Counted from the first letter of the stretch, positions 12,914-36,400 are shown. The stretch: 64,000 nucleotides of DNA from a virus (IMGVR_UViG_3300027747_003534:32001-96000); one strand, 5' to 3'. The notes: a model not told the origin generated them from the sequence alone. A program made the numbers and translations.

Positions 12914-13066
12914 ATGGATGATATATTTGCTGTAATTGGCAAAATGTATCTGGATCTTGTACAGAGTCAAAAAATTATAGAAAGCCTGCAAAAAAAACTA
13001 GAAGATCAACAAAAGGATCTTTCTAGCTTGCAGGCTTCTATTATTTCTAAAGATAGCATAATGTGA
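12914..13066 (+). CDS. Small coiled-coil protein, 50 aa (not in ORF track)
   Basis: RBS GAGGA at 12901; MDDIFAVIGKMYLDLVQSQKIIESLQKKLEDQQKDLSSLQASIISKDSIM*; its stop overlaps the next GTG start (GTGA). Confidence 0.7.
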   Translation: MDDIFAVIGKMYLDLVQSQKIIESLQKKLEDQQKDLSSLQASIISKDSIM

Positions 13067-14097
13067 ATGAATCCAGGAATACTGAAAAATTAGTGCATAG
13101 AATACTATCAGGTAAATTAATATTTTTTCTTGATAGTAATTATTATGAGCTTAGGAAATCATCTTTAGATATTAAGATGGAAGCAGATTTTCTATATGCT
13201 TCAACATACGAAGATAATTTATATAATGAAAATTTTTGGTTAGCTGAAGATATAGATAATTTATTAATAGAATTAAATATTCTGTACTATGATAGTAAAA
13301 AAATATTGCAAAAAATTGAAAAAAGCTTAGAGAATGCTAAGATAGATTTATTTAAAAACTATTTTGATATTACTAAAAGATCTAAAATAAAAACTCGCAT
13401 ATCTAATCTTAAAAATGATATTGAAAACATATACTCAAAACAACATAGTTTAGATTTTTTAACATTAGAAAACTATTGTGATAATATTAGGCATGAATTT
13501 ATTATTAGTAATACATTGTATAATAAAAGTAATGATTTAGTATTTAAAAAAAATAATATTGATTATGTAAATTTTAATAATATTATATCTGTAATTTCTA
13601 AAAATATGATAGATGTAACAACATATAAAATGATAGCACGATGTGATTATTGGAAAAATTATTGGAGTAATAATAAAACAAATGTTATAGATAGTCCTAT
13701 TAGGGATTGGTCAGAAGAACAAAAAAGTTTGATTAATATCTCTTGTATGTATGATAAAATATATGAGCATCCAGAATGTCCACAGGATGATATTATTAAT
13801 GATGACGATGCTTTGGATGGTTGGATGATGTTTCAAAAACAAAAAAATGATCTACAAAAGAAAGAAAAGGGTGTAGATAGTATGTTGTCAGGAAAAATTA
13901 AGAACTCTAGCGAAATATTCTTGATGGCTGGAAATAAGGATCAAGCAGAAGATATTTTGGGACTAAATGCTCAGGACTCTTTGGGTATTATAAAAACCAA
14001 AGTTGATACTGTTATGTCAAAAGGAAGAGTAAGGGACGGAGAATTGCCGGATGTTAAACAAAGAATTATGCAACAACTTCAGAGTAAAGGAAGATAA
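13063..14097 (+). CDS. Putative tail assembly chaperone, long (GT-like) form
   Basis: Lies between tube and TMP genes; N-terminal half aligns by eye with 14445-15335; has an extra C-terminal domain with YEHPECP.DDII.DDDALDGW. Confidence 0.55.
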   Translation: MNESRNTEKLVHRILSGKLIFFLDSNYYELRKSSLDIKMEADFLYASTYEDNLYNENFWLAEDIDNLLIELNILYYDSKKILQKIEKSLENAKIDLFKNYFDITKRSKIKTRISNLKNDIENIYSKQHSLDFLTLENYCDNIRHEFIISNTLYNKSNDLVFKKNNIDYVNFNNIISVISKNMIDVTTYKMIARCDYWKNYWSNNKTNVIDSPIRDWSEEQKSLINISCMYDKIYEHPECPQDDIINDDDALDGWMMFQKQKNDLQKKEKGVDSMLSGKIKNSSEIFLMAGNKDQAEDILGLNAQDSLGIIKTKVDTVMSKGRVRDGELPDVKQRIMQQLQSKGR

Positions 14098-14100
14098 TTT

Positions 14101-14427
14101 ATGTATGAACCAGAGCGACTAAAATTTTATATGGAACGTAGAATCGAGACCACAATGATAGGTACTCTTGCAAGAATAGAACAAAATTTTGGATTTTTGT
14201 GGGGACATAATAAAGATGGAGAACTCACAGAGGAAGAAGAAAAGTTTGCCGATATTTGGGATTTTACAAGAAACGATATATTAAATCATGGAAACAAACA
14301 AATAAGAAATTTGGATATTGATTTTAATCGCTATGGTGGAGTTTTTAAGAGTAACTACCACTATACTTTTAAAGTGAATAAAAATAATAATAATAATAAT
14401 AATAATAATCATGAAAATCATAAATAA
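14101..14427 (+). CDS. Hypothetical protein in the tail chaperone region
   Basis: 108-aa ORF tightly packed in the operon; poly-Asn tail. Confidence 0.6.
   Translation: MYEPERLKFYMERRIETTMIGTLARIEQNFGFLWGHNKDGELTEEEEKFADIWDFTRNDILNHGNKQIRNLDIDFNRYGGVFKSNYHYTFKVNKNNNNNNNNNHENHK
14383..14409 (+). repeat. (AAT)9 microsatellite encoding poly-Asn
   Basis: Nine perfect in-frame AAT units. Confidence 0.9.
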
Positions 14428-14444
14428 AGGAAAAGGATATCAAT

Positions 14445-15335
14445 ATGAAAACAGAAAATTTTAGTGTTGTTGTAGATGGCGTTGAAAATCATTATGTTGT
14501 TCGTTCTCCCTCTTTAAATGACCAAAGAGAAGCTCAAAAGGCATACAATCAGGCTTTTACTGATGCTATCAAGAGTAAGAGCATAGTACGAGCTAAAATG
14601 GATGATCTTCTAGAAGAACAGGGCTTATGGAATAATGAAAAACAGGCCAAGTTCACATCTCTGCAACAGGAATTACTAGACGGAGAAAAAAGACTTGCTA
14701 AGGGTGGTTTTAGTCTGAGCGACGCTAAGAAACTAGCTCTACAAATGAAAGAGATTAGATCAGAAATAAGAGATCTCATTAGTGTAAGAACCAGTTTAGA
14801 TAATCATAGCGCAGAAGGTCAAGCAGATAATGCCAGATTTAACTATTTAGTATCAGCTTGCGTGGTGTATAAAGATACTAATGAGCCTTATTTTAAGAAT
14901 TTGGAAGATTACCTAAATAAGTCAGATGATCCTGTGTCTTTATTGGGTGCTCAAAAATTGGCTAATATGGTTTATGGATTGGATAATAACTTTGAAAAAG
15001 GCTTGCCAGAAAATAAGTTTTTGCATAAGTATAAGTTTGTTGATGAAAAACTTCGTTTAATTGATAAGAAGGGCAGACTAGTTGATGTTGACGGAAAGCT
15101 TATTGATGAACGAGGACGATATATTGATGAGCAGGGTAATTATGTCGATAAGTATGGAAATAGGGTGGACGTTGATGGAGATTATGTTGTAGATTCAGAA
15201 CCATTCCTAGACGATGAAGGAAAACCAGTTGTTTTGGAAAAAGAAAAACCAGTTACGGAAGAGAATAAAACTGATGATACCAACAAAACCACAACTGTAC
15301 CAGAAGCAACTCCAGAAACTCCTAAAGCAGAGTGA
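14445..15335 (+). CDS. Putative tail assembly chaperone (G-like)
   Basis: Directly upstream of the TMP; RBS AAGGA; helical N-terminal part, C-terminal DxxG repeats and an acidic tail. Confidence 0.6.
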   Translation: MKTENFSVVVDGVENHYVVRSPSLNDQREAQKAYNQAFTDAIKSKSIVRAKMDDLLEEQGLWNNEKQAKFTSLQQELLDGEKRLAKGGFSLSDAKKLALQMKEIRSEIRDLISVRTSLDNHSAEGQADNARFNYLVSACVVYKDTNEPYFKNLEDYLNKSDDPVSLLGAQKLANMVYGLDNNFEKGLPENKFLHKYKFVDEKLRLIDKKGRLVDVDGKLIDERGRYIDEQGNYVDKYGNRVDVDGDYVVDSEPFLDDEGKPVVLEKEKPVTEENKTDDTNKTTTVPEATPETPKAE

Positions 15336-15421: not shown

Positions 15422-18400
15422 ATGAGCAAAGGATTTAATCTTACAGCAGAAATCAACTTGCGCGGTCCTTCAAATATAAGGACTGTTGTTGCGGATATTC
15501 GCAGGCAAATTGGATCTGTATCCGCAGATATTACTCCGGTAGTTACTAGACAATCTGTCCGTAATGTTGCTAGTGTAATAAGAAGTCAGCTGTCTAATAT
15601 AATATGTGATGTTAAGATCAAAGCCAATACATCATCATTAAGAAGTATTGGATCAGATATAAGAAGACAGTTAAGTGGGGTTAGTGCTAATATTAACGTT
15701 AGGGCCAATCAGTCATCAATAAGAACAATGGCGGCTGACATCAGAAGACAATTAGGATCAATTAATGCTAATGTTAATGTTAGATTCAATACTACTGCTG
15801 TTACAACATATAGTAACAATTTAAGAGGATTAAATGCTAATCTTAATCAGATAATAACCTCAGCCACCAATGCTACAGGAGCCATCAATGCTTTAGCTGC
15901 TGCAATGAGAAGTGCATCAGCTGCTGGATCGGCTATTAATAATACTGCTATAAATGTTGGAAATGTTAGCAGGGCTGCGAATAATACTAGAAATAGCATT
16001 ACTCTAGCATCCAATGAAATGGTAGAGTTTGGTCGTCAATCCGGCTTAGCATTTAGAAGATTTTCAGCTATTACAACTGTTACAAGTGTTATATATGGAT
16101 TAACAAATGCTGTTAGTCAGGGTGTTAAATCTTTTATAGATTTTGATTTGCAAATGACTCGCATATCTCAGGTAACTGGTGATTCAAGAAATAAATTAGC
16201 TGATGTGGCAAATACTATTACAGATTTATCTACTAAACTTGGTGTTTCTTCTAATGAGCTAACAACTACCACAGTAACTCTTGCACAGGCTGGTTTAACG
16301 GCTAAAGATACTGCTACGGCGCTCAAAGCTTTGGCTCTTAGTGCATTAGCTCCATCATTTGATGATATGAATCAAACTGTAGAAGGATCTATTGCTTTAA
16401 TGAGACAGTTTGGTATAGGAGCAAATCAATTAGAAATGGCACTAGGTAGTGTTAATGCTGTGTCTGCTAAGTTTGCTGTTGAAGCTAGTGATATTATTAC
16501 TGCTATTCAGCGTACTGGTGGTGTGTTTGCTGCTGCTAGTAGAGGAGTAAGCACAGGCACAGAAGCATTAAATGAATTTATTGCTGTATTTACCAGTATC
16601 CGAGCTACAACTCGTGAAAGTGCAGAAACTATTGCTACTGGTTTAAGAACTATTTTTACTAGAATTCAAAGAGCAGGAACTATCGAAGCATTACAAGAAT
16701 TTGGAGTTACATTAACTGATTTAGAAGGTAAATTCGTAGGTCCCTATATTGCGGTTCAAAGACTTAGTGAAGGACTAAGCAGATTAGATCCACGAGATCT
16801 TAAATTCTCACAGATAGTTGAAGAATTGGGCGGCTTCCGTCAGATCGGCAAGGTGCTACCACTTATTCAACAGTTCGCAACTGCTCAAGACGCATTAAAG
16901 GTTGCTCAACAGGGCCAAGGATCATTAGCAACCGACGCGGCAAAAGGACAATTAGCTTTAGCTATTCAGATTCAGAAAGTGAGAGAAGAATTTCTTGCTC
17001 TTATTCGTAGCATTGGAGATACTAGTAGTTTTCAAAATATTGTAAAAGTTGGTTTAGATTTAGCCAGCGCTTTAATAAAGGTGGCTGATGCCACTAAGGG
17101 AGTTTTACCATTATTAACTCTGTTTGCTGCATTTAAAGGAATCACTGCGGCCACTCAATATATAGGTGGTTTTAGTCAAGGAATCAGAGGAAATGGTGGA
17201 GGAGCCAGAAGAGCTAATGAAGGTGGTCGTATATATGCTTTTGCTAGTGGTGGATTAGTACCAGGATATGGAAATGGTGATACTGTATCGGCAAAATTAA
17301 CTCCTGGTGAGTTTGTGATGAGCAAGCCAGCAGCACAAAGCATAGGAGTTGGTAATTTACATTCTTTGAATAGGAGTCGTGGAGGATCTATATTCCCCAA
17401 AAATTATTATCAGGGTGGGGTTGCAGCTTTAAAATCACTGTCTCCAGGAGAAAGTGGAAATAGAATCTCAGACTATATAGATTATTACGAGAATGAAACA
17501 AGCAAGACCAGCAAACAAAAAACAGGAAGAAAAAATAAATTAAACAGACAATCACCGAAAATGCTTAGAGGTTTTCAGCTCAAAGATAATGTTAATTCCG
17601 ATATAGAGAGAAGAGTTATTGGGGAATCAGAAATAAAAGAAGCTGTTGCAAACAATGCGAATTTTAGACGCTATATTAATAGTAGAGCAGCCAAAGATAA
17701 GAGTAGAGAGTTCTATGCTGCTCAAGGCGTAGCTTTTGAGGAGTTTTTATTTCAACATATTCTTGAGGGAAAACAATATGAAAAAGCACCCAAAAACAAC
17801 TATCCTTTAGATTTTATACCAAAGACTCCCGGATTACCTCCAGTTGAAGCTAAATTTACTTACGAGCAAGTTCCTGATGCATTTATTTTAAACAAACGAT
17901 TAAGATATAACTTATTGCGTCGTAATAACGAAAAAATATCTCCTTTAACCAGGAAGCAGAAACCCGACAATATTCAATTGGGTCCAACAATTGTATATGA
18001 AATGGGACCTGGATTAAAAAACAAAATCTTTACTCCAAACTCAAGTGAAAGCCAAAAAAGAGGAAGAGAAGAAAGAGCTCAGAAGAGTTTATTAAAAATT
18101 GATAAACTTGGTTTAGAACGTAATAATGGTGGATCTATACAAAAATTCGGTATTGGTGGAAGTACTGACGCTATATCAACATATAAAGCAACTTCTATGA
18201 AACTTAATAGAAGTCTAATGCTTGGAACTCCATTAACTAAAGAAGAACAAAAAAATGTTAAAGATTTAAAAAAACAAACCACAGATAAATTACCAAAACA
18301 ATTATATTCTGGTATTGGAGAAAATAGACTCAATCTGATTAAAAATCAAGTTGGCGATAAGCTACCAAAATCGGTTGGCAAATCATTTACATTACCTGGA

Positions 18401-21400
18401 TTTTTATCTACTAGTTTAGATAGCTCTATAGCAATGGAATTTGCTCGTCAAGGACTTTTGAGTATTTTGACCAACCCCAAGAAAAAGGGTATTAATACTA
18501 ATAAACGAGTTAGTACAGATTATGATTTAGAAAAAGAATTTATATTACCACCAAACTCTAAATTCAAAATCTTAAGCGCAAAAGAAGAGCGAAGTTCTGC
18601 TCGACCCGGAAGTTCTTTAATGAGATCAAAAGCTAGTCTTAATGTTCAACAACTAGCTTCTGGTGGATCTATTCAGCGATTCATGGCCGGAGAGATGGTC
18701 AGAAGAACAAAAAAAGAACGGTTTAAAAAAATAACAGAGTCCGATGCTGCTAAATTAACAGCTTCTCAAATTATAACAGGCCTTACTACTGGACAGACCG
18801 GCCCCGTTAGAGTAGAGGGTATGGATGTTGGAATGATGAGGACTATTCTTGGTAAACGAAATACAACACCAGATATTCAACGCAAAAAAGATGAGATTCT
18901 AAAAGCTTATACCAGAAGAATAAACGGTGAAGTAGATCAACGTCTCGGAATTACTAATCAGAAACAAGCAGCAGGATTACTATTTGGTATTGCTGGTTTG
19001 TACGGCTCTCCATTTAAGCCAACTGATATGGTTGTTGGAGATAAAGGAGAACTTAAAAACATCACAACTGTTCAGGTGATGGGTGGTGTTCCTCGTAAAA
19101 AATTAATGGATAAGGCTGGCATAGGTATTGATGATCTAGATGCTTATGGTAAAGATTTTAGAAAATCTGTTAAAAAAGGAGCTAAAAGACTATTAGTATC
19201 GGATATTCTTAGTCAACTAGGTTTAGGTAAAGCGCTTTATGCTGACTTTGACAAAACATTAGTATTTGGGGCTGATAATCTTCCTGATCTACAGTCTTTT
19301 AACAACAAGAGACAGGTAGGTAGACAATTATTATCAGAAAAAGCTAGACTTAGCACTCTTGGTCAAAAATTAAGAGATTTATTGCTAGTTAAGCCTCAGC
19401 TGTCACCATATGTAAATGTACTAACAGCGCGACCACCCTCCACAGTTGGTCTTTTACAAGCTTTCCTTAAACGACAAAATCTTAATATACCTCGTTCTCA
19501 ATTTACCGGGGTTGGTGGTAATAATTTAAACGAATCTGCAATTGCAAAATTAAAAGCTGCGGAATTACCTCCCGGATCAGTTTTTGTTGATGATAATGGA
19601 AAAAATACAAAAGAAGCAGAACTTAAATCTAAATCACTAAAGGCTAAAGGTGAAGCTGGTATTAAAGTATTTAGATATAAAAGTGCCAGAAATCCGTTAG
19701 ATCAACCGGGTGAAGATACTGCTGCTGGTCTTGCATTTCAAGAATCATTAAGAGGACTTCTTTCAGACAAAAGAGCAATGGCAGCATTTGCTGAAACAGG
19801 AGGAAAGAGCATTGACTTTCCGCTTGGATTAGGAAAACGAGCAGCATTATTTGGTCTAAAACCAAACATACCAACAGATGCCAAAAGAACATTGAATGGT
19901 CCATCAACAGCAAAAGATAATATCACTAATTATCTAAAAGTTCGAGGTTATAATAGCGGTGGAATAATTCAAAAATTTGAAACTGGTGGAGCAACAGATA
20001 GTCTTAGACAATACCAATTGCGATCTAAAGATCTTCATTCTGCTGTTATTTCAAACAAACCAGACAAAACTAAAAGTAATCAGATAAAAGATCTTGACAG
20101 TTCAATGATTGATTCTTTGCCAAAAATACTTTATAGTGGATTTAAAGAAAATCGTAGAAAAATTATTGATCAAGATATAGATCCTAATAAAGACTATAAA
20201 TCTCAGTTAATGAATAAGACTTTTTCTTTTCCGTCATTTTTGTCTACTTCTATAAACTATGATAGTGCTAAAAGATTTGCTGGATCAAATGGAGGGGTAT
20301 TACACATAAGACCAACAGGTAAGGGTGCTAATGTTTTAGAAAGAACCGGTAATAAAGGAAAGAGTGCTCTTTATGATATGGAAGCAGAATATCTATTACC
20401 AAGAAATTCTAGATTTAAAATCAATAGAGTATTAGATACTACTGGACCACTAGGATGGAGATCAGATTGGGGTGCTCCAAATTTTCTAGAAGCTGAAGTT
20501 AAAAGTTTTAAAAATGGTGGAAACATTAGAAGATTTGCTGATGCTGGATTAGTACCTGCTCCTAAATTAATTCAAAGAGGAGGATTCAAGTATAGTCTAG
20601 AAGATATTATTAAAGCCGGTTTTACTGAAGCTCAGTTCATGAAGCAAATACCTGCTCCTGGTGGCTATGGTGAACAGTGGCAAATTGGTGGTTATGGAGA
20701 AGGCTCAATACCTATGCCTCCATCCCTACAACCATATAAAGCTCCACCATCTGTTGTTCAGGATCGGGTTGATCTTGCTCGATCAAATGTTCAAAATAGA
20801 ATGGCAGATGCGGTAAGGAGAGACGGACGCACTTTGAGAGATTACGAGGTTAGCAGTGATCAAAAGGCGTTCAAGAAAATGCGAGGATATGCAATAGGAG
20901 GATCCACACAGGATACTGTACCAGCATTAGTTAGCAATGGAGAAGCTTTTGTACCACCAGAAACAGCAAAAAATATAGGATATGACAAATTAAGAGAAAT
21001 GAACCAAGCAGATCGTAATGGTATGAGGTCATTTGCTGGTGGTGGAATTAGTTTATTTAAGGGACCCGGTAGCGGAACAAGCGACAGCATAGGACCTGTA
21101 GGATTGCCTGTGGGCGGATTTGTTATAAGAGCAGCTGCTACCAAAGCTTTAGGATTAAGTAAGGGCGGAGCCGTTCAAAGATTTGCTTTTGGAGGAAGTC
21201 CTAGAGCAGTACCAAATATTAGCGGCATGAGCGATGCTAGAGCATTATCAGTAGTTGGAGTTACAGATAATGTTACTGGTCAACTAGAAAATTTAGCTAC
21301 GGTATTACAAGAATTAGGTGTTAGATCAGGTGATTCTGCTAGAATTATTCAGAGCGGCATACAAGCAACATACCAACAAGCTATACGAGCAACAGAAGCT

Positions 21401-24400
21401 GATATTCGACGAGCCAGATTAGCCGGAGCTAGTGCAGAACAGATATCTCAGGCTGAAAATCAATTAGCAGATATTCGTAGACAAGCTCAGCAGGATATTC
21501 AAACTAGACGTACTTTAGGAGGCTTATCAGGAAATCAATTACAGAGCATAGAATCTAATGCTCAAGAAGAAAGAGACAGAATACGCACAAATACCAGAAA
21601 TAGATTAGCAGCTAGAGGTATGAGTCAGGAAGATATTAATACCAGATTGCAGGAAAATGCTGGAGCTATTGATAGACAAGCATATTCTAGAGCAAGTAGT
21701 AGAGCAGGAGTTAATCTTAGAGCTAATGGTTTAACAGGAGATGATGCTCAAAGATTTGTTCGTCAAAGTATGGGAGATCCTCGTATACTAAGACAGATGG
21801 ATGATCAACTAAGACAGCAGTTAAGAAGTAGTACTGCATATACAACTGCCAGTAGAACCCAGCAAAGACAAATGAGCCAGTCTGTTGAAGAAGAAATTCG
21901 TACAAGAAAAGATATTGTTAATAAATTAGCTAGACAAAGGGGACAACAGGCTCCTGGCGGTGATCAGCGAGGTAATTTTGGAGGAATGTTGGGCTTATCT
22001 TTTGGACTACAAGGAATAGGATCATTGCTTGCTCAGCAAATTAATGCTAGTGCCAGCTCTTCAAATGCTAGCACAGCGGGCGCTATTCAGGGCGGAGTTA
22101 CAGGATTAGCTACTGGTGGCATGCTCGTTGGCGGCTTGCAAGATATGCTAGGAAGCAGACTTAGTCCAGCAGTGTCTAAACTTTTAGGAGGATTTGGTCT
22201 TCTTGCTACATTAGCGGCCTCTGTTGGACAAGCTTTTATAGAAGCCAGAAATGCTGCTATAGAATTTGAGAAAAATTTCCAGCAAAAGAAATTAGAAACA
22301 GCTATTAGTGATAGTCAACAATTATTTGAAAAACTAAATACTAACATTAAGAATGTAGATATCCAAAGATCGTTAGCTTCTAAATTAGCAGAAGCAGGAG
22401 AAGCTGCTAAAGCTGGTATAGAAGCTAATAATAAACTTGCTAAGGCATTTTGGGTTAATCTATTTGATGCTTTTGGCTCAGCTGATCAAGGAGCAGCATC
22501 TCAACGTAGTGAGATTTTGGATAAGAAAGGAATAATGGCATATTTTAGATCTACTGATCTTTTTGGTGGAGGAGACAAAGGACGAAGTAAAGAATATCAG
22601 TCTTTAATTCCTGAAAAAGCAAGAGAAAATTCTAAAAGTTTTGCTGAAACCTCTAAGCTTACTACTGATCTTATTGGAGCTAAGATTCAGAGCGGTTCAA
22701 GTGTTGAAGATATATTTAAAGATCCAGCATGGAAAAAACAAGCAGAAGTTATAGCAAGGGCGAATGCTGCTGTAGAACAAGAAATTTTATCTATAAAAAA
22801 TAATGCTAACATTAGTGATGTTGAAAAAGAAGCACGAATTAATAATATTATAGCTATAAATGCAGAACAAACCATTAGGCAACAAGCTTCTGTTATTGAA
22901 AGACAACAACAACTCAAGTCTTTAGACAATACAATAAATGTTTATACTAGATCTCTTGAGAGAATGTTCCAAAATATGGAACAAAGCATTGGTCGTGCCA
23001 GCTTCTCATTAGAACAAATGAGCAAAGATATCGATCTCGCATCAGATTCATTGCAAGGTCAAGCCAAGGTTGGTAATATTGCTTTAACTGCGATTAACGC
23101 TTTACAAAATCCAAGAGCATATTCTGATCAAACAGTATCAAATTCCAGAAATGTTGCTGCTGAATCTTTTGGCATACGATCACCAGAAATGGTTTCATTA
23201 TTAGGAGTTGGAGAAAAGATAGAATCTACTGTAATGAGCACCATTAATAAATCTGTTAATAAAAATCCTGGAATAACAGAAGAAGCATTAGGATCCATTG
23301 TTGGTCGCGATGTTAAAGAGGCACTAGCTAACTTGTCATTGCCTCCAGACTTAGTTGAAAAGTTATCTGGAGAAGTTGGTAATGTTCTTAAAGACTTTAA
23401 GAAATCTGGAGACGAAAAACTAGATTATACTCAGCTTAGCGAAAAACTTGGTCAGCTAAATAAGGTAGTTGATAGTTCTAGGAGAGCACAAGAAGTAGCA
23501 ATCAAAGCATTAGAACACTATCAAAACGCCCTTAATGTATATACTCAAAATATTAATAAAACTATTGATCTACAGATTTCTGCTAATCAAAGACTAAGAA
23601 AAGCTACTGATATAGTTGCTGATTCTGAACTTTCTTTGGCAAAAACTTTGGGTAAAAATATTAGCTTAGAAAATGCTAGAACAATGGTAAACTCTAAAGT
23701 ATCAGCCAAAACAGGAGGAGCTACTAATCCTAATGATATATTTGATAGCATAAATAAACTAGAAAATACCAGAGTAGTTCAACAAGCTGAACAAAGAAGT
23801 GCAGGAGAAAGAGGACTATCTGGTCAAGCAGACTTTATTAAATTCACTAAAAACTTATCAGATACTAATATTGGTTTAAGAGAAAATATTGATGCATTAA
23901 AATACTTAGCTGACAATACCGATATTGCAGCTTCTGCTATGGAAAAAATTCAAGAAGCTCAACAAAAATCTTCTGGAAGAGCCTCATTTATTGAAAAATT
24001 AGTTACTAGTACGCCCGAAGAATTAAATGGTCTTTCTAGTGCTTTTCAAAGATTGCAGAATAATGCTAATGGACAGATAAATACTATCAACAGATCTACT
24101 GGTGCTCAACGAGCCTACTATGAGGCTTTACAAAATGGAGCAAGTATGATGGAGGCTATGAAAGCTGCTCAAGCTGCTTTTGTTAATGAGCGTAAAGAAA
24201 CACTAGGCGCCTTAAATGATATATTGCCATTTTTAGGAAATAATCAACAGGCTGGTAATATTAAGGCAAATGTATTAGAGAGTATGCTTCAAGAATCTGG
24301 TATGGGAGTATCTCCTGTATTTCAGCAAATATTAAATACTCTTAGAAATCCAGAATTAGATCCAGCAACTCAAGCAGCTATTGCAGAATACAGAGAAGGT

Positions 24401-27400
24401 AATAATTTACAAGCACGAGCTAATTCTTTATTGGCCCAACTAGATTCTAATTTAGCTCGCGATATTGCAAACCAATCAGCTAAAGCTTTGGCTAATGCTC
24501 TTAGTGATGTTAAGATAAATTTTGAAGGTTCGGAACTAAAAGATTTAGTTAATTTAGTACAACAAATCAATGGTAAACTACCACTAGGCGCTGCTCCTGC
24601 TGCGGGTAAAGCCTCTGGAGGTGTCATATACGCTGCTGCTGGACGTGCTATTGATTTTAAGAGTCAAGGTACAGATACTGTGCCAGCAATGTTAACCCCT
24701 GGCGAATTTGTGGTTAATAGAGCAGCTACTCAAAGCCACTTGCCTCTTTTAAATGCCATTAATAGTAATAAATATAGTAGTGGTGGAGCTGTTAGATACT
24801 ATAGTTCTGGTGGATATGTTAGTCAAAATTTTAAGGAAGAATACAAAAAAAATAGTGATGATCTAGTTCAATCTAAAGAAAAATATATTGACCCAAGATC
24901 AGCAGCTTTTAGAGAAGTTAAATCTGTCTATGCCGGACCAGATAAATTTGTTAGGGGTGCTCAACCTAAAACGATTATGGCTCCCGTGGCTACTGCCTCT
25001 AGTGGCAGAGCAAGCCTGGATTCGATTAAAAGCGAAGATGGTATCAATAATTTATATTTAGGCGAGGCCCCAGCTATATTAGTGGAAAAAAATGCACATA
25101 ATCAAGATGTATTTAACTATGGTGTCATTAATAGGCCTCGTGCACACTTATTAGATCCCCTAGGCTCTGTAGTCGATAAGCCATTTGACACCAAAAATAT
25201 TACCAAAAATAAATTCATCGAATATAAAAATAGTTTTAATCAAAAATTAATTAATAGTGATTTAGATTCATCTACAATAGTATCAAGTATGCCAGCAGTC
25301 AATGACATAAAAGATATTCCCGAATCTTTAATTTCTGATCAATTTTATAGTCCCAATGTTATATCTAATCTCCCAGTAGGTATGATTGTAACAAGAAATA
25401 AAACTCTAGGAGCATTATCTTGGAATAAAGAGAGCACAGAACATGCTAAGGTATTAAAAATATATAGACTAGCATCTGATTATGCCGATGTTAGCGTCGT
25501 ATCTAATGAGGATCAGGGATACTACAAGATCAAATCAGATCTTAAAATGTCAGATTCTAGCGCGCAAGATCGTATTAAAATATTGACAGGAGATAATTCA
25601 TGGATAACAGAAAAAGATAATATTAAAAATATTATTAAAACTCAAGAATTAAACCTTAAAGATCTTAAACAAACTCAGACATTTACATCGGTTGATCCTG
25701 ACCCCACAAATCCTGTATTTAATAATCTTTTTAAGGCAGAAGATCCGAATCTTAGTAATTTAAGACAAAAATTAGAGATATTATATAGTGGAGCTGAGGG
25801 AATATCATTAACGGGCAATGAATTAAACTTTTTTAATCCTAGTGCCCTTTCAGAAGATAAAGAAAATAATATAACATTATTACATGTTTTAAATAGTAAA
25901 TATAAACCTATTTTAGATAAATCTTTAAACAGTAAACAACAAGCAGATAAAATAAAGACAACTTTTCCAAAATTGATGGTTGGAGGAGCAGGATTAAATA
26001 ATTTACCAGACGCTGATTATAAATGGGCTAGAGGATATGAATTTGGAATATATGACGTAGCTGACATGGGTAAAATGAAAACTTTTCCATGGGTAGCTAA
26101 TGAAGACCCATCAGTAATATCTCAAGATATTCAAGCTGCTATAGATAATCAAGCTGAACAATTAAAAACAAAATATGGAATTAGCACAAAGCCAGTATCT
26201 GATTTTGGTTCATATAAGTTAAAGCTGCCTAATCCTATAGGAGACGTTGACTTACCGTATCATATGCAGTATACAGAGTATACAGGGCCACAAATTGCTA
26301 CAGATCCTAGTAAAGCTGATCCTAATGGTTTTAATTTAGGAGCTAATTTAAATAAAGCTTTATTAATTACTCCAAATAATAAAAATCCCCTCAGTCCATA
26401 TTCTCAATTTAAAAAATATGCCCAATCAACAGCTTATGTAGACAAAATATTAACTGGGGATGAAATATTTGATAAGTCTCATATTGAGCTTGACAAAATT
26501 CCCGATTTCACCACCCTTGCTAAGGGTAATATTGACAGAAATCAAAGAGATCAACTCAAACAAAACCTTAAAGGTGTTCAGTATAGTATTGATTTAGATT
26601 CTTTAATTGATCATACCAATCATCCGATACTAAAAAATATTCCATTATTTGAAGATAGTCCACCAAATAAACAATCATATGTTTTCAATATAGGGGAGTA
26701 TTTAAGTACAGTAGCAGATAAAGTATTTACAGACAGAGACAATGCAGCAATAAAATCTGTTGGAGAAATTGATGACAAGGGTCAATTAGCTGATGATACT
26801 ATTAAGGATAATAAATTACCCGATGCTGTTAAAAATTTAGCTAGATTATCATTGGGTGTTTTTGGAAGAAAAAGAGTTCCAGGATTACCTGGAAATTGGC
26901 TATATAACAGTATCCGTGGAATAATACAAAAACCATTTAAAAATTCTGGCGTAGCTCAACAAGCAGCAGGATATACTAGTGGAATATTTAATAATTTTGG
27001 AGGCTATTTGAGCAAATTGGCTCCTATGACAAGGAATCCCAATATTTATCAGCAGCTAAAAGAATTATTCACATTGGGATCTGGTGCTGCTATGGCATTT
27101 ACAGGTTTGGCCAGTGGTGATACACGAATGATAGGTCAGTTTCAAAAATTAAACTTGAATGCAGAAGATCTATTTAGATCTCTTGGAGGAGCATCATTAT
27201 TTGGTAGAATTTCTTCAACGGCATTATCTGGGGATTATAAGGCTATTTTAGGCCAGCAATTAGAAGGAGCCAAGATAAAAACTGTTGGTGCTAATGGTAC
27301 GCTAAGTCTGGTATCGGCAGATAAAGCCATACCAGAAAAATATAATGATTTAGTTAATATTGCATTTAATCCATATAATGAATTTCCAAGTAAGGATACT

Positions 27401-30400
27401 CGTAAGGACATTATTGAAAAACTTACTACGGATATGATCAATGCAACAGATCAGGTAGGTATGTCATATTTTGATCCTAATACACAAAGATTCTTATATG
27501 GGAATATGACATCGTTGTATAATTGGTATGGTGGAAATGGAGCATGGGAAGGTCAAGATTATTTTTTTGATAAGAATGTTGATCCTGATAATGCTAAACG
27601 TACTCAGCAAGTTATAGATTCTTTTAGCGGTCAGGATGGTCAAGATGCATATACTAAGGGTAATATTGCTCATACTACATTAGGTTTTGCTTCTCGTTAT
27701 GGAAGTTTACCAACAGACAAGTGGTTTGTTCAACGACGAGAAGCTGGTTTAAATGCAGAGGCCCGAGCTGTCACAGACCCAAATGCATCTAAAGACCCGT
27801 TAAGATTTGCTACCGGTGGCGTAGTATATGCTCAAGAAGGTCAACACATCAATTTCCAGCCTCGTGGTACTGATACTGTTCCAGCAATGCTGACCCCCGG
27901 TGAATTTGTTATCAATAAAGCCGCAACACAAAGTAACTTGCCACTACTACATGCTATTAATAATGGTGGAGCTAAAGCATATAGTAATGGGGGACCTGTT
28001 TATTTAGCTCGTGGCGGTTTAACTGTAAAAGAACATTTTAAGCCTTTAGATACAAATATATTTGATAGTTTAGATATTGATAAAAATAGTATTTTAGAAG
28101 ATAATGAGATGCCTAAAAATAGTATTCTCAGATATATGGCAGACTATAGGAAAGGAGCAGATAATAAATTAACAAAGAAAGAATTAGAAGAATATAACAC
28201 AGACTATGATAGTCATATTGATAATTATTTATCTCTTGATGCTCAGAAAAAATATAATAATATTAATCCTCAGAAACAAAAACTAAATGGGTCGTTCCAA
28301 TTAAATAATGGAGACAGGATATCACAAATACAATTTATTCAAACTTATGAGGCAGCTAATAAGATTGGTAAACAAAAAAGCAAATGGGGAGCTCGTAATA
28401 CTTTAGAAGAAAACTTTTATAGTGGAGATCCTAATTATCCTTTTAGTCAGGCAACATATGACCTCGAAGCACATAATAATAAATTACGCTTGGGTGTCGG
28501 ACCGTTTAATAGTAAGGCTTTTGGTTATGGAGTAGCACAACAAATTATACCTGCATTATTAAGCTTGGCAGGTGGAGGAGTGGGATTTGCTCTCACTGCG
28601 CCATTTACTCCAGCAGCACAAATAGGAGGTACTATTGGTGGAGCAATAGTTGGAGATCAAATAGGACAAGTTATTAATGAAATGATATACAATGGATTTC
28701 CTTCATCGTGGAAAAAAGATATAAATAAAAAAATTGAAAAATATCCCGAATCTTACGAAATAGGTCAGTGGACAGGATTTGCAGCAGATATAGCAATGGG
28801 TGGATTTGCTGATGATTTTATAACAAAATCAGCAAGTGGACTAGTAAAGAAAAAATTAACAAGACAAGCAATAGACGAAGCCATTAAATCCGGATCTTCG
28901 CTGAATAAACTTATACAAGTAGGTAATGATACTATACCCATCGAAAAAACAGTTGATGATCTTGCTGAATCAACAGGTAAAGAAGCTGCTTCTAACTCTA
29001 AGAAGGTTAACAAATCAAAAAGCAAAAAATCTGAGAAGGCTGAGAACAAAGCCAAGATAGATAGTTTATTAAAAAATATGAAAATTATTGGAGATGAATA
29101 TAATAGTAAAATTGGAGAGGCTTATAATAAAGGAATATTAAGAAAATATGATTCATTGGCTGCCGGAGATATCGCCTCTGCCATACAAAAAACAGGAGAC
29201 GTGCGAAACCAAGCAGCTAAATTTCATTTTGACGATTTATTGAAATCTAGTCCAGACTATGTTGATCCATCTCTTTTAACAAAACTAACAGATAATTCAC
29301 CCATATACATTGCTGCACAGTCGCAGGCTAAAGAAACTTTTTCTAGACTAGGAATAGATGTTAGCGATGATTTTGGTAAACTAGACGCTAATAAAATGTT
29401 TGATGAATATTTTAATAAAGAATATGATATTCTTAGTAAAAACCCACTAAATGAAGCAGCTGCTAGACAAAAACAATCTATTCTGGATGAAATAGCACAA
29501 AAATATGATATAGACCCATCAGATTTTAAGCGACTAAAAGATAAACTAGATGATATTGCTGTTCGTCCTAGAAGACCAGGATTTAAAACTATTTATGGAT
29601 TAACAAAAACTGCTATCATGATAGCTAGAATGATAAAAGATAGAAAAATAGAACAAAAGAAAGCTCAACCATATGATATGCCAGAAGCTCAGACTGTTCC
29701 TGCTGTCGCAGATAAAGCAGAGGCGGCAGCTTCTCCCAATAAAGATGAACCTAAAACTGCTGAAACTACTCCACCAAAACCACAAGTTGTGAAACCTAAG
29801 GATGTAGGTAATCTACCAAAATATTGGGATGAGCTTAGTTATAAAGAATATTTAGATACTTTAATTAAAAGTGGTAAGAATCCAGAAATTCCAGATAAGA
29901 AGCTATTTACCACATCAGCTATTTATACAAAAGGCAAACGAACAACAGCATTGGATTCGCGAGATACCACAGGCATAGTTGGTGGAAATAGAGTTTCTTT
30001 ACCAAAAGACCCCAAAGAAAAAGCTAAATTAGACGCACAAATTAATAATATTGGTCAAAAATTATATACATCTTCTGAAATAGCATATGATTCATACTCT
30101 AGATTAGTTACCGGAAAAAATAAAAATATTCCTCTCGGAGATATTATAAAGGGCGATCTAATAGATAATTATAGACAGTCTATTGAGAGTATGCATGAAT
30201 TGATGAGTATCACTAATTTAGATAAATTTGGAACAATCAACTTTAAACTTGATAAGCCGCTACCTGGACAATCTTCAAATAAGAAACTTGGAGATATTAT
30301 AGATACCTTGAAAGCTGTTCGTAAAGGCTATAAAAATGATATAGTACCAAGTTTAGTTAATGAAGACGCTGAGCCCAAAGAAGGCGAAACTCCAGAAGAT

Positions 30401-33400
30401 GCTAATAAGAGAACTCAAAGATCTGTAGTAATAGACGATTCTATACTTGATTTATTTGGCCGAAAGTTTGCTCCTATAACAGAAACAAGACCAGATGCTG
30501 TTCCAGATAACGGGAAAAAATTTACAGGACGTGAAGTTAGTGACACGGCTAGAGAAAATGATAAATTCCCATTTAGAACCAGAATAACTGGAGCTAAAGG
30601 AATTAATTCACAGTATAAGTCTGCATATTCTTATTATAGAAGAATACTAGGAGAATATAATTATCATAAAAATATTGGAAAATTAGATAGATATATAAAA
30701 GGATATAAAACCACAGCTACTGTTGCTAGAACTTTAGCTAGTGGTGGCATAGTATATGCATCTACTGGGGCTTTAATTCCTTATGCTCCCAAGGGCACGG
30801 ATACTGTTCCGGCAATGTTAACTCCTGGTGAATTTGTCGTTAACGCAAGATCAACTGCTAAAAATTTACCTCTACTAAAGTCTATTAATAATGGAGGAGT
30901 TCAAGGATTAAGTAGTGGGGGAGTGGCTTATCTTAGTAGGGGAGGACAACCAAATGATGTTTCATACGGTAGGTTTGAATTATCTGATGACCAAGCACAA
31001 TTTTCTCATAGATCAATCAATCCATTAACGGGAAATAGAACTCCTGAGAATGGTGATGATCTTGATAAAAAATATAGGATTAACTCTGGTATATATGACT
31101 ATTTGACCCTAAGAACCACGATGCCAGACTGGTTAACTTCGTTAAATAATTTAAGCTTCGATGATAATAGTATGCGCTTTTTTAGCGACGCTTCTTTTTA
31201 TAAGACCTTAACTCAAATAAGAGAAGCTAATGATTTAAGGAGTCTCCAAAGTCTATCATATAATTTTGTTAAAGGTTTTAAATATAGAGATTATAATAAA
31301 GATAATCGTCTTACTGGATTTGATTTTACTAGCCATCTTTCAAAAACGGACGGAATTTTAGGATTAATAGATCCTGATGTTGGAGGAGACCTTCAGCCGA
31401 AAGATTTGGTCAAATGGACAACAACAAAAGCCAAGCTCCAGGCAAAATCATCTGCTGCAAGAGTTGTTAAAAATTTAACTCCTGATCTAGAAAATCTAAG
31501 AGATATTCTTTCTGATCAGAAGCCTATGGGGAAAAATAATAATCCAGAGTTTAAAAATAGAAATCATTATGAGTCACCAGCAGCATTACTAAACAGCACC
31601 GTGAGCGAATGGAAAAAACAGAGACAGCAACAAAAAAACAGAGTAAATCTAAGACAAGAAGAGTTAACAGAAAGTAAAGATGGTCGTCAAATCACGATGC
31701 CTCCTCATCTCAATATGAATTTTGATGAAATTAATGTTGCTGATGTTGTAAAAGATATTCTTGCTAAGAAAAAGACCCCATATACGGAAAATCTAGTATC
31801 TTGGCTCGAAAATAATGTAAAAACAGTATCTGAAAAAGTAGCTGATTTGGTACCTGTTCCAAAGGCTAGTGAGGAATGGGATGCTGCTGATGCAGAGAGG
31901 CCGCGTGTTATTTTGGACCTTATTAAGAATGGTCCAGAAGCCTTTATGACTGGATTAAAGGGAGAAACCAAAGAGGGTAAAAGCAAGTCTCTTATTTATT
32001 CTCTACTAGCTCAGTCTGCTAGAATCCAAGGTATTAATAATCTTATCAAAGCTAGATCATTATTTTCTGGATCTGAGACTTCAGTCAGAAAAGGAGAAAC
32101 TAACTTTACCGGAGATATGGCAAGAAGAGATCGTAACTTAGTATATAAAGACCAGACCAGAACTCCTGAAAATTTTGAAGAAAGAGAAAATAACGTATCA
32201 AGATCAGGACAAGTAAAAACATTAACGCCAGCAGATAATTCTGCAATACCTGGGTCTGGACCAAACGGAGAGCAAACTTCAGATGAGCGAAGAGAAACTT
32301 CCAATAGGGCCAGGATGGCTAATGGCCGTGGAAACTCTGCTATTCGTGGCATTGAACTATGGGATACTAATAGGGATGGTAAAATCTCTTTTGAAGAATG
32401 GAATCAATTTCGTCCTGAGAAAGAACCCGAACTGCAAAGATTTTTTGGGGCTTCCACATTTGACGCATTAATGGGAGCTTATTCTTCAGCATTAAAAGGC
32501 TTGGGTCTTAGGGATAAAAATGCCACAGATAATTTCAAACCTAGAACTCTAAAAGACTATTTTAAAAATATTGATAAAGACAACACCGGATATATCGAAC
32601 AACATGAATTCTCAGATATGGTTGGTAAACCACTAGAATATCTTGATATAGAAACAGATCGAGAAGCAAAAGAACTAGGAGATACACTAGGAACACAAAG
32701 AGATCCTAGAGGCGCTCAGAAATTAGCCTATGATAAAATAGATAGAACTACCATCTCATCAGTAAAAAATTTATTAAAACAAGATTTTAAGGAATTATAC
32801 CCAGTTTCTTTCTCTAAGGCTTCGCACTTCTCAGAAAGAGAAGTAATACAACCACAGATAGATGCTCTTAGAAAAATCACAGGGGTTTCTGAGCTAGATA
32901 AGATAAATAAAAGAACAATCTTAGCAAATATAGGGTCTTCCTTAAATAAGGATAATAGTGATTGGGGTCTCTCTCCCAAAGTTGAGGAAAATCTTGGTAA
33001 TGTTATGGTTAAAATTAAGCAAGATTCTTTGCTATTTCCAGGAGTGGTTAATAAGGCATATACTCAAGGTCTTGCTACTCCTCAAGATCTGCTGCATAAC
33101 CCTGATATTAATTACGAGAAGACCCTTAAAAGGTCAGGAATTCCAGAAGACATATTTAAAACCATATGGCAAGACTATAAGCCAGTTTCTAAGTTTGATA
33201 ATCCGAATAGCAAAGACTCCTTAGACAAAATATATAAATTAAATAATGAGCTTAATTCTCAGGAAATAGGCGAAGACAAAGAAAGAACTACAGCAGCAGC
33301 ATTAAGTCAAAAATCAAACGCTAAAAAAAGATCAGCTAAAAAAGAATTAACAAAAAATACTTTAATAGAACAACTTCTCGTTAAAGCGAAATACTTTGAA

Positions 33401-36400
33401 CCAGATGTTTATAACAAGTTATGGCGTGGGCAGTATAAAGACTATTACGATGTGCCTGATCCAACTCTTGCTCGACACGTTGATATGTATAACACCCTGA
33501 TACCTTCCGGCGAAACTGGTCGTTTATCAAAGCCATCCGCAGATCAAGAGAAGGAGTATAGAAATAGATTAAAAGATATTAGTAAAAATCCAATTTATGC
33601 TAATAAAGGAATGCTTATCCCTTACCAACCCAGAGGAACTGATACTGTTCCTGCAATGTTGACTCCCGGAGAGTTTGTTATCAATAGAGCGGCCACCCAA
33701 CAAAATTTACCACTGCTACATGCTATTAATAGTGGAGCTAAAACTTATAGTAGTGGTGGAATTGTATATGCTGCTAATGGAGATTTGATAGGATCATCCA
33801 ATAGCTCCTCAAATAGTGATCTATCTAAAATCTCAGCAGTAGCATCTTTAGTTCCTAAAATCTTAAGTAAAGTAAAAGATTCTGATAAGATTAAATCTAA
33901 TCTCGATACTATTAATAATAACGTTATATTAAATCATAAACAAGGCAAAATATTAAACGATAAAATAAGTTTATTAAATAATAAAATTGATATGGGATTA
34001 GGAGATATTCAAGAAAATATTCCTACTGATAATTATTTGTCAAATATTCCTAATTATTTTTCAAATAATTTATCAAGAAGTTCATCATATGGATTGAATC
34101 ATGGGGGAATAGTTTATGCTGCGAATGGGAAGTTAGTAAATTATCAACCACAAGGAACAGATACTATTCCAGCAATGTTGACCCCAGGAGAATTCGTAGT
34201 TAATGCTCGGGCTACTAGTGCAAATCTTCCATTATTACAGACCATAAATAAGAGCAAGGGAGGCATTGCTTATTTACAACAAGGAGGTCTTCCTAATAAT
34301 AGAGATTTTTTAGAAAATAATAGAGATTTACAAAGATTTACAAGTCGTATTGGATTAAAAGCAGCTAGAGATATCATAAATCATAAAGATATGTATGATA
34401 TTTTTAATAATAATATGTTTCATGAAGACTTGGACGTTGATGCAAAAATAGTTGAGAGTAAGAGATATATCGACAGTCATATAACAGATAGGTCAAAAAT
34501 AGCTGCTAGAGAGCTAGTTAAACAAAGAATAAGGCAGAGACAGCGTTATTTAGACCAAATATTTACAGCTAATCGTTTTACCCTTGATGAAATAAGTTTT
34601 GGCGGGAGAGATCGTGAGCTTAGGTATACATTATTTGGAATAGAACTAAAAGAGATTTTAACTACACAATGGCGCAATGCTCAAGGGGAAAACTATAGGT
34701 TACAAGACGTTATCGAAGGAATCAACCCATCTCGCCCACCTTCTTTTTTTAATAATGGCGGAGTAGTTTATGCTCAAGATGGATTTGATCCATCAAAACA
34801 AAGAATGCCTACTTTATTCGATTTGCCCCAAGATTTTAGAAAACCACATAAACCATATAAGCCAGATGTTAAGCCAAAACCAGGATTAGCTGGAGCATCA
34901 ATAGGAGCACCAGAAAAAGTTAGTGCTACCACACAGAGAGCTATCGATAGTAAGGTTTGGGAACAGACACCTCAAGACATTCCCTATTGGTTTGGAACAA
35001 GAAAAGAATCAGAAACTGAAAGACAACAAAGAGTAATTGAGTACGGCTTGAACGAAAATCTACCTGAATGGTATAAAAATGCTGGAATGGCTTGGCAAAT
35101 GGTCGAAAATATTGCGCAAGGTTGGGCGGGTACCGGAGGAGCAGGTCATCAGCAGCCTAGATTAATGCAACGAGTAAAAGGATCACGAACACCACTAACT
35201 GGACAAAGACCGAACATTCCTGTTCCTGGTTATGGAGCTTCTAACCCTAATACTCTTAATGATTTAACAACATCAAATGTTACTAGACCAATGGTTAGGA
35301 CTGGAGATACTTTAGATAATGCTACTACTGATGCTGGTTTAAGACGCAGAGTCTCGTCGCCAAAAGATGCTCTTCAGAATGCGTCTACAAACAGTATGTC
35401 TAGACCTAAGCCAATATCAAATCAGGATAGTTTTGGTAACGAATCCACTAATGCTGGATCAAACCCAAAGCTACAATTAGCTCCTTTATCATCTAGTTTG
35501 GGAGGAACCACATCAAACTCCAATGTGTCACAGCCTGCTGTACCATCTAGTTCCTCATCCAAAGGTATTCTTGGTAAAATTTTAGAGTATATCAAAAAAC
35601 CTTTTGTAAAGCAACAAACTGATGAAGATCCACGGATGCCAGTATTTATGACAAAGAAACCAGATTCTGTAACTGAAGGAAATATACAGAAATTACTTTC
35701 AGATAGGCAGGTAGGATATACTGGCAGTTCGTTATTAGCAGGTAGAAATGCAAAACCCGGAATGTTAAAAGAAGTAGACAAATATCTGCGAGATGCTGGT
35801 ATAGATCCATCTTCTATGAAATTTGTTGGATCTGGTAGAGAATCGATGGTTTTTGATGCTGGTAATGGAAAAGTATTTAAACTTGGATATACACAAAATC
35901 GTGATGTTCAAAATATTTTAAAGTCTCCTGATTTAGAAGCTTTGTCTTTACCTTCCGATGTTCCAGGCGTAGCAGGATATACAGGAAGACAAAATATAGG
36001 ACCATATACTGTAGGCTTTCAACAAAGAACTCAAACGCTTGATCCAGAAGCTCAAAAACAATTTCAAACCGGCAATGTCGGTGCTGAAATGCAAAAATAT
36101 TTACGAGAAAAGGGGTACGAATGGAAAGACGCTCATCAGGGTAATGTTGGATACGCTACAGATCCGCGGTTTGGTATACCAACACCTATGGGATCATTAC
36201 AGGTTATTGATGGAGATGTTAGACCAATACAGGCGAAACAAAAAGGAGGCATGATATATGCTTCACAAGGAACACTAGTCAACTATCAACCTCGTGGTAC
36301 CGATACAGTGCCAGCGATGCTGACTCCGGGAGAATTTGTTGTTAATGCTCAAGCAACAAGACAAAATCTACCACTATTACAAAGCATCAATAAAAGCAAA

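Follow-up and report, generated by a model that had tools for sequence, protein, structure and literature searches.

Double-glycine motifs as putative junction peptides of a modular cargo array in a giant phage tail tape measure protein

Introduction

Tail tape measure proteins (TMPs) of phages are usually seen as rulers that carry perhaps one cell-wall enzyme, and Piuri and Hatfull are said to have noted, in 2006, cell-wall hydrolase motifs embedded in mycobacteriophage TMPs. In phage T5, the TMP, pb2, is cleaved after R1127 as the tail assembles; the cut falls between a hydrophobic stretch and a peptidase domain, and the piece removed is retained in the tail. The lambda TMP, gpH, loses a C-terminal piece of about 14 kDa 'from the glycine-rich region' to become gpH*. 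In the Pseudomonas phage JBD30, residues 1022–1066 of the TMP are predicted by the authors of that work to be a 'hook' that retains the protein in the baseplate after the C-terminal domain leaves, and cleavage has been proposed at residue 1066. Here, we describe a TMP of 7,794 amino acids (aa), P0001, in which short glycine-bracketed motifs lie at the borders of ADP-ribosyltransferases (ARTs) and other putative cargo cassettes; P0002 and so on denote its relatives. It is encoded in a window of 64,000 nt, comprising bases 32001–96000 of the 161,520-base virus record IMGVR_UViG_3300027747_003534, which CheckV rates as complete. Positions are window coordinates unless they are marked as genome, and a TMP residue is given by (nt−15422)/3+1.

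In bacterial MARTX, CdiA and Rhs proteins, a short conserved motif (VENN in CdiA and DPxGL in Rhs) separates a constant scaffold from exchangeable effector cassettes, and the borders in MARTX and Rhs double as cleavage sites. The analogy with P0001 is functional: there is no sequence similarity, P0001 is a phage tail protein with several internal junctions rather than one C-terminal tip, and, unlike its MARTX and Rhs analogues, it was not found to contain an internal cysteine or aspartyl protease domain. The polyvalent proteins (Iyer et al. 2017, PMC5512222), the closest concept in the literature, resemble P0001 in being huge virion-delivered chains of ARTs, nuclease-like domains and conflict enzymes that undergo domain shuffling, and their processing into units by a zincin-like MPTase domain has been proposed. 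However, that study does not mention TMPs or describe a conserved peptide at inter-domain junctions, and whole-protein Pfam scans (E 0.01 or better) found no zincin-like MPTase processing domain in P0001. A literature search that covered few subscription journals returned no paper on the motif, on the hook-type module described below as a family, or on effector arrays in giant TMPs.

We propose that P0001 is a giant TMP with a modular cargo array, the motifs being conserved peptides at its junctions, where processing might also take place. In our estimate, the grounds for accepting and for doubting this reading as a whole are evenly balanced, and its separate parts are graded where they are discussed.

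Results

The open reading frame (ORF) that contains the motifs encodes, according to its family matches, a TP901-type TMP. PF10145 matches residues 265–469 (77.9 bits versus a cut-off of 33.2, E 1e-21) and TIGR01760 matches residues 224–535 (84.4 bits versus 28.8, E 7e-24), both above the curated cut-offs, and several PHROG TMP families also match. The block that we studied, 17207–21196, corresponds to TMP residues 596–1925 and lies wholly within this one ORF (Table 1). A preliminary description of the window, made from its sequence alone, had reported seven paired double-glycine motifs in this block, and all seven strings were recovered where it had placed them. The GG dipeptides start at residues 601/610, 654/665, 903/912, 1081, 1513/1522, 1699 and 1915/1924, the second pair being AG rather than GG at motifs 1081 and 1699, and the paired GGs are spaced by 9 residues and once, at 654/665, by 11. 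Five of these seven glycine-bracketed motifs (903, 1081, 1513, 1699 and 1915) share an 11-residue frame, GGx[IV]Q[KR]FxxGG.

To gauge what chance would give, the P0001 sequence was shuffled 2,000 times. P0001 has four matches to the strict pattern GGx[IV]x[KRQ][FY]xx[GA]G (0.003 expected) and 12 to GGx[IVLM][YF][AS] (0.11 expected), and there are 21 GG pairs separated by 7–12 residues, compared with 1.8 expected and a shuffle maximum of 9. Chance and low complexity were ruled out by these shuffles as the origin of the motifs, which within the whole 161.5-kb genome are confined to the TMP. A single search limited to proteins of 4,286–13,640 residues found 98 relatives, all of them giant TMPs of 4.3–7.9 thousand residues with the same layout, on contigs of up to about 250 kb. 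In the 99 giant TMPs, the stand-alone motif is present in 305 copies, compared with 3.3 expected, almost all in the first 40% of the chain, and a GGxIYA form is present in 374 copies in the last 60%. The family consensus of the stand-alone motif, derived from 255 distinct instances, is [LFY][NAS]xGGx[IV]Q[KR]F[A]xGGx[VA]; positions that had been left free in the search pattern are nevertheless conserved, including Gln (68%), an aromatic residue or Leu at −3 and Ala at +7. The five copies in the TMP gene of P0001 use differing synonymous codons, and their longest identical run, read from the printed codons, is 11 nt. Because the codons differ synonymously while the peptide is kept, selection seems to act on the peptide and not on the DNA, and DNA-level repeats were ruled out as a recombination substrate on the same grounds. 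To judge from these comparisons, the motifs are specific, selected peptides and not products of chance. Neither the motif nor the hook-type module has a model in Pfam, NCBIfam or the PHROG-annotated families.

The relatives also reveal the arrangement of the block. Its flanks are conserved: among the 98 relatives, the N-terminal 595 residues were found in 92, the first hook module in 94, residues 1820–1914 in 90 and the core at residues 1926–3060 in 74. The content between the flanks is variable, with cassette A found in 7, ART1 in 33, cassette B in 48, ART2 in 20 and cassette C in 12, and across the family the segments between consecutive motifs fall into 47 sequence clusters. This distribution identifies the block, at the level of sequence comparison, as a cargo bay that keeps its place between conserved flanks while its content varies. 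Likewise, the difference between the GGxIQRF and GGxIYA forms, which the preliminary description had correctly noticed, giving the distal form as GGxVYA, holds throughout the 99 proteins and is apparently an old, positional feature of the family.

How closely do the motifs coincide with domain boundaries? PF03496 matches both ART segments (33.0 and 35.4 bits versus a cut-off of 23.4), spanning residues 6–145 of the 167 between motifs 903 and 1081 and also matching the segment between motifs 1513 and 1699. One cassette was modelled with AlphaFold, using residues 880–1110 (ART1 with its flanking motifs) and a 20-row alignment, A3. In this model, pLDDT is about 90 or more (two blocks near 70) over residues 915–1079 and below 50, without secondary structure, in the upstream motif 903 and the second half of the downstream motif 1081; the first helix begins two residues past the upstream GG pair, and the last strand stops three residues before the downstream pair. 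Foldseek matched the model to C3larvin, C3bot, CDTa, iota toxin and VIP2 (E about 1e-8, probability 1.00). As modelled, ART1 is a C3-like ADP-ribosyltransferase, the ART fold being secure, and the motifs that flank it are predicted to sit in flexible linker directly outside the folded cassette. For cassettes A and B, the ESM Atlas neighbours are leads only; they are weakly restriction-endonuclease-like for cassette A (0.86) and HAD- or 5′-nucleotidase-like (0.85–0.86) for cassette B, whose sequence also shows a DxDxT-type HAD motif. The several unrelated effector-type domains by which a polyvalent protein is recognized are present, namely two ARTs and EF-hands by Pfam, a HAD motif and the 47 clusters of the family.

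The preliminary description had stated that the motif-defined segments match the enzyme domains closely. This is true of the ARTs, each of which starts after one motif and ends before the next, and it does not extend to motifs 601/610 and 654/665, which bound a TMP module rather than an enzyme. Its last motif, 1915, is real and follows a degenerate double copy of that module. The objection it had foreseen, that the motifs might fall inside folded domains, does not apply to ART1, as judged from both the Pfam envelope and the coil in the AlphaFold model.

In both ART1 and ART2, Ser occupies the position of the catalytic Arg (YSG for YRG), and STS and ExE are kept (alignment A3). The R-S-E catalytic triad is therefore incomplete in both, with Arg replaced by Ser, and by sequence their activity as canonical R-S-E enzymes is not secure. 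The Arg is also missing in the closest ART relatives, P0102, P0104, P0110 and P0116, which bear the same GG motifs and are probably derived from TMPs, and it is present in free-standing relatives.

A point that the preliminary description had missed is that cassettes are exchanged at the motifs. In searches made cassette by cassette, P0002, a relative that is 99% identical overall, was 97–100% identical to P0001 in the N-terminus, hook module 1 and cassettes B, ART2, C and D, and 87% identical in cassette A, whereas its ART1 slot holds an unrelated cassette of 193 residues. In the alignment of the two proteins, identity is lost immediately past the first GG of motif 903 and regained midway through motif 1081. 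Conversely, ART1 together with both of its motifs is 80–84% identical in P0008, P0010 and P0017, in which the N-termini are 58–60% identical and the neighbouring cassettes differ, and cassette C is 90–92% identical in P0003 and P0015, whose N-termini are only 60–72% identical. Breakpoint statistics were compiled from protein matches. Within residues 560–1960, 45% of 546 termini of matches to P0001 fall no more than 15 aa from the centres of the seven motifs, compared with 15% expected. As a proxy for recent exchange, we used the internal ends of matches of at least 85% identity and at least 150 residues between any two family members; 56% of these lie within 12 aa of a GG strand, compared with 6.6% at random positions, and 39% of the proximal ends lie at the stand-alone motif, compared with 1.3% (about 30 times chance). 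Because the counts are not independent, many of the sequences being related, and because alignments end where similarity ends, so that match termini partly reflect where an alignment can end, these percentages describe co-location and not a rate, and to this extent they count against our interpretation. The variable cassettes are thus bordered by a conserved motif, and breakpoints lie at that motif, the two features by which cassettes are demarcated; the protein alignments show the motifs as the points at which cassettes (ARTs, a HAD-like enzyme and other domains) are exchanged between related phages.

Where might the motif have come from? P0001 holds ten copies of a hook-type TMP module of ~70–75 residues, which consists of a GG strand, an invariant core (...TDTVPAxLTPGEFV...), a short helix and then one or two more GG strands. 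A scan of IMG/VR with one peptide pattern returned 594 stretches, in 551 of which the hook module was confirmed, and among cultured phages (of Brevundimonas, Gordonia, Mycobacterium, Nodularia, Streptomyces and others) every annotated record places the module within its tape measure gene. Searched against the PDB sequence set, the module profile matched the TMP of mycobacteriophage Douge (E 2e-4) and that of JBD30 (E 0.37); the matching JBD30 stretch, 1016–1087, overlaps the predicted hook. In a one-sequence search, it matched lambda gpH at residues 754–797 (9.9 bits, E 3e-5). T5 pb2 was rejected as a homolog of the module, the profile match being not significant. In 29 of 104 aligned hook modules, the trailing strand has the frame of the motif, that is, GG, x, Val, a basic residue, Tyr, Tyr/Leu, Ala, x, GG. 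Because this frame is exact, the motif of the enzyme block is, on this comparison, a stand-alone copy of the trailing edge strand of a hook module that is found in ordinary TMPs, including lambda gpH. When a single hook module was modelled with AlphaFold (104-row alignment), the pLDDT was 61 and only the helix after the core was confident; the module was accordingly rejected as a folded globular unit.

An ordinary TMP in which the same elements meet is gp22 of Mycobacterium phage Cheetobro, which the module profile matches with 42 bits. Its module ends in an [F]AxGG strand, the GG of which precedes an NlpC/P60-like catalytic-Cys motif by about 28 residues, although Pfam does not call the hydrolase. 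The order of module, GG strand and enzyme therefore occurs in an ordinary TMP too. Unlike P0001, Cheetobro gp22 is of ordinary length (1,390 aa) and carries a single cargo rather than an array. RefSeq labels its copy of this tape measure gene (L082:2322-6494) 'endolysin'.

The first ~670 residues of P0001 (window 15422–17419) resemble a complete small TMP of the lambda/TP901 type up to its hook module, and the last ~95 residues (38501–38803) come after the final module, like the C-terminal plug in JBD30. Given this small-TMP-like start and plug-like end, ~7,000 residues of cargo and extra modules would occupy the place where ordinary TMPs have about 60, which bears on how tail length is set.

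Table 1. Predicted features of the giant TMP gene (window coordinates)
Feature	Position	Strand	Basis or remark
Tail tape measure protein (P0001), single ORF, 7,794 aa	15422..38806	+	ORF list, translation, PF10145, TIGR01760, PHROG
TP901-type TMP domain, aa 224-535	16091..17026	+	TIGR01760 224-535; PF10145 265-469
Hydrophobic segment, aa 560-578, then glycine-rich stretch	17099..17155	+	Hydropathy scan; order as in lambda gpH upstream of its module
Hook module 1, aa 601-666, with leading and trailing GG strands (motifs 601/610, 654/665)	17222..17419	+	Alignments A1, A2; in 94/98 homologs
Cassette A, aa 667-902	17420..18127	+	No Pfam match; present in 7/98 homologs
Junction motif, aa 903-913	18128..18160	+	pLDDT under 50, coil; left breakpoint of P0001/P0002 swap
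ART1, C3-like ADP-ribosyltransferase cassette, aa 914-1080	18161..18661	+	PF03496 E 5e-8; AlphaFold; Foldseek
Junction motif, aa 1081-1090, second pair AG	18662..18691	+	Second half and next residues pLDDT under 50; right breakpoint of P0001/P0002 swap
Cassette B, aa 1091-1512, HAD-phosphatase-like core	18692..19957	+	DxDxT-type HAD motif I in sequence; in 48/98 homologs
Junction motif, aa 1513-1523	19958..19990	+	Match terminus within 15 aa in 58 homologs
ART2, second ADP-ribosyltransferase cassette, aa 1524-1698	19991..20515	+	PF03496 E 9e-9; aligns with ART1
Junction motif, aa 1699-1709, second pair AG	20516..20548	+	Pattern
Cassette C, aa 1710-1819	20549..20878	+	In 12/98 homologs
Degenerate double hook module, aa 1820-1914, conserved right border of cargo bay	20879..21163	+	In 90/98 homologs
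Junction motif, aa 1915-1925	21164..21196	+	Pattern
Distal hook module (GGxIYA form)	24602..24844	+	Module alignment
Distal hook module	27800..28042	+	Module alignment
Distal hook module	30728..30970	+	Module alignment
Distal hook module	33569..33811	+	Module alignment
Distal hook module	34088..34330	+	Module alignment
Distal hook module (copy folded with AlphaFold)	36230..36472	+	Module alignment, AlphaFold
Distal hook module	37385..37627	+	Module alignment
Last hook module, just upstream of ~95-aa C-terminal end	38258..38500	+	Canonical module position in ordinary TMPs; JBD30 layout

Discussion

What might the junction peptides do in the phage? By analogy with T5 and lambda, the role that we favour, though with slightly less than an even chance, is that of a processing site: the motif peptide may also be where the TMP is divided into separate pieces. 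This might happen while the tail matures or once the protein has been ejected into the host envelope, and it would set the enzymes free individually; a protease of the host or of the phage, or assembly as such, could be the catalyst. This proposal gains indirect support because T5 pb2 and lambda gpH are cut at an equivalent position, beside a similar strand or module. In T5 pb2, the R1127 cut lies three residues before a GG-Met-Met-Tyr strand and separates the enzyme domain from the remainder, as we propose here. In lambda, the 14-kDa C-terminal piece would begin, by its mass, near residues 710–725 of gpH, directly upstream of the lambda copy of the module, in which the leading [F]AxGG strand lies at about 732–738 and the core at 754. 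In both proteins, the processing region consists of a hydrophobic segment and a glycine-rich or GG strand followed by cargo or a plug. Residues 560–672 of P0001 repeat this order, with a hydrophobic segment, a glycine-rich stretch and the module, so that the enzyme block starts exactly where T5 pb2 and lambda gpH are cut. However, the two known proteins have one site and one C-terminal piece, in contrast to the 10 modules, five stand-alone strands and ~7,000 residues of cargo in P0001. A need to separate effectors that have different targets, which has been argued for polyvalent proteins (Iyer et al. 2017, PMC5512222), would also arise here.

Several observations weigh against processing. Cleavage at the motifs is purely inferred; the resemblance to T5 pb2 amounts to one short word, which is not significant by the module profile; and according to a 2025 structural paper, the cleavage site and the catalyst of lambda gpH are still unknown. 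The preliminary description had suggested looking in the genome for a protease that could cut at GG, and this search yielded no GG-specific family: Peptidase_C39, C48 and C5 were absent from the genome searches, that for C5 being made without a positive control. Nor did Pfam scans (E 0.01 or better) detect a protease domain within the TMP. The two phage proteases that were found, one ClpP-like and one trypsin-like, have no known link to the motif. The signal peptide of the trypsin-like enzyme suggests that it would be exported and would not meet tail assembly in the cytoplasm, and its co-inheritance within one phage lineage says nothing about its substrate. Finally, the poor prediction of the lone module suits a strand that folds on a partner, that is, docking, at least as well as it suits a cleavage site.

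Some features of these proteases may be recorded here. The gene of the ClpP-like protease (PF00574, 51 bits) lies on the minus strand at genome G000:C1:135098-135547 (L081), and its product is perhaps the prohead protease; no HK97-type protease of the S78 or S49 family was found in the genome. The trypsin-like serine protease, at genome G000:C1:145951-146709 on the minus strand (L084:1375-2112), has 246 aa, with a signal peptide at the N-terminus and an intact His/Asp/Ser triad. Of 29 related virus records, 17 contain it, at 42–71% identity; among the 17 records with a completeness of 90% or more, 13 do so.

The failure of the C39, C48 and C5 searches to provide a matching protease would be expected if the TMP stays in one piece and the motifs are uncleaved hinges or docking strands, our main alternative explanation, which we regard as rather unlikely. 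The glycine pairs would be flexible, allowing bulky cassettes to be packed serially in the narrow lumen of the tail tube, and the hydrophobic strand would join the β-sheet of a partner (the baseplate hub, the tube lumen, the tail assembly chaperone or other TMP chains), keeping the register. In agreement with docking, the motif is an edge strand of the hook module, which in JBD30 is predicted to hold the TMP in the baseplate, and the T5 TMP segment beside the cut forms a three-stranded sheet with a hairpin of the hub; the poor prediction of the lone module, with its GG strands lacking structure, is likewise as expected for folding on binding. On the other hand, effectors with different targets would remain tethered to a membrane-inserted TMP, and the two TMPs that have been examined closely, T5 pb2 and lambda gpH, are cleaved at this place. 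The widest form of the processing proposal, in which the hook module with its GG strand is a general processing element of siphophage TMPs (responsible for the conversion of gpH to gpH* and for the T5 pb2 cut) that is reused at least 15 times per giant chain as a cleavage code, seems to us decidedly unlikely. If it were true, it would answer a fifty-year-old question about the mechanism of TMP processing, and through such a code a single tail protein would become a programmable collection of host-takeover enzymes, shuffled by recombination and each released separately.

The concentration of breakpoints at the motifs, with both P0001/P0002 junctions inside them, might also be taken to mean that they are recombination adapters only, that is, joints for swapping cassettes in frame that have no role as peptides. 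We consider this very improbable, since the five copies share no more than 11 identical bases in a row and would be a poor substrate for homologous recombination, the Ile/Val, Gln, Lys/Arg and Phe positions are kept in 255 distinct instances from 99 diverged proteins, as expected for selection on the peptide, and the same strand is conserved in ordinary TMPs without cassettes. Even less credible, in our view, is the history drawn from the preliminary description, in which the whole block is a recent insert that splits the helical ruler and the two forms of the motif record two waves of acquisition. The two forms do differ, and the content of the block differs even between near-identical relatives, as such a history would predict. 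Nevertheless, the flanks of the bay are kept in 90–94 of 98 homologs, and the GC content of the block (0.35–0.39) is similar to that of the remainder of the TMP gene, so that what was taken for an insert is better described as a variable bay at a fixed position, not peculiar to this genome and with the base composition of its gene. Two waves are hard to reconcile with the proximal and distal forms, which hold their positions in the 99 giant TMPs, the proximal form copying the trailing strand of the module. Moreover, the first ~670 residues already form a unit like a complete small TMP, and the cargo would therefore follow the ruler unit and not split it.

If TMPs are regarded as rulers, a family of 4,300–7,900-residue members that would carry modular injected enzymes, with every slot marked by a short peptide that lacks a Pfam or NCBIfam model, extends this view considerably. 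The motif offers a sequence rule for locating cargo boundaries in giant TMPs, at which cargo appears to have been swapped between near-identical phages. It also suggests a concrete candidate region for the cleavage of lambda gpH, for which hundreds of natural variants are available. Should the junctions prove generic, they could serve as natural splice points for studying which proteins siphophage tails can deliver.

Additional observations

The TMP gene is flanked on both sides by a run of ORFs on the same strand. The upstream ORFs have tail-fibre or baseplate matches in PHROG and Pfam, and no family match was found for the adjoining ORFs at 13063–15335 and 38803–43191. In a collection of cultured phages, P0001 had no close relatives, only its N-terminal TMP domain matching SPbeta-like phages, at 26%, and a search of IMG/VR for DNA of close relatives returned only two loci, which are 44% identical. 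Two more glycine-rich hydrophobic segments lie farther along the protein, at window 22166–22240 and 28541–28609 (TMP aa 2250–2273 and 4374–4396), and could serve in membrane insertion, like the stretch in T5 pb2. A distal cargo segment at window 32363–32623 (TMP aa 5648–5734) contains EF-hand calcium-binding motifs (PF00036 and PF13405, above cut-off), which several of the giant-TMP relatives also carry. Upstream of the tail-tube region, at window 3234–6211, ORFs encode a collagen-like repeat (below the Pfam cut-off) and FN3 and laminin-G/ConA-like lectin domains; their products are probably fibre or adhesin proteins.

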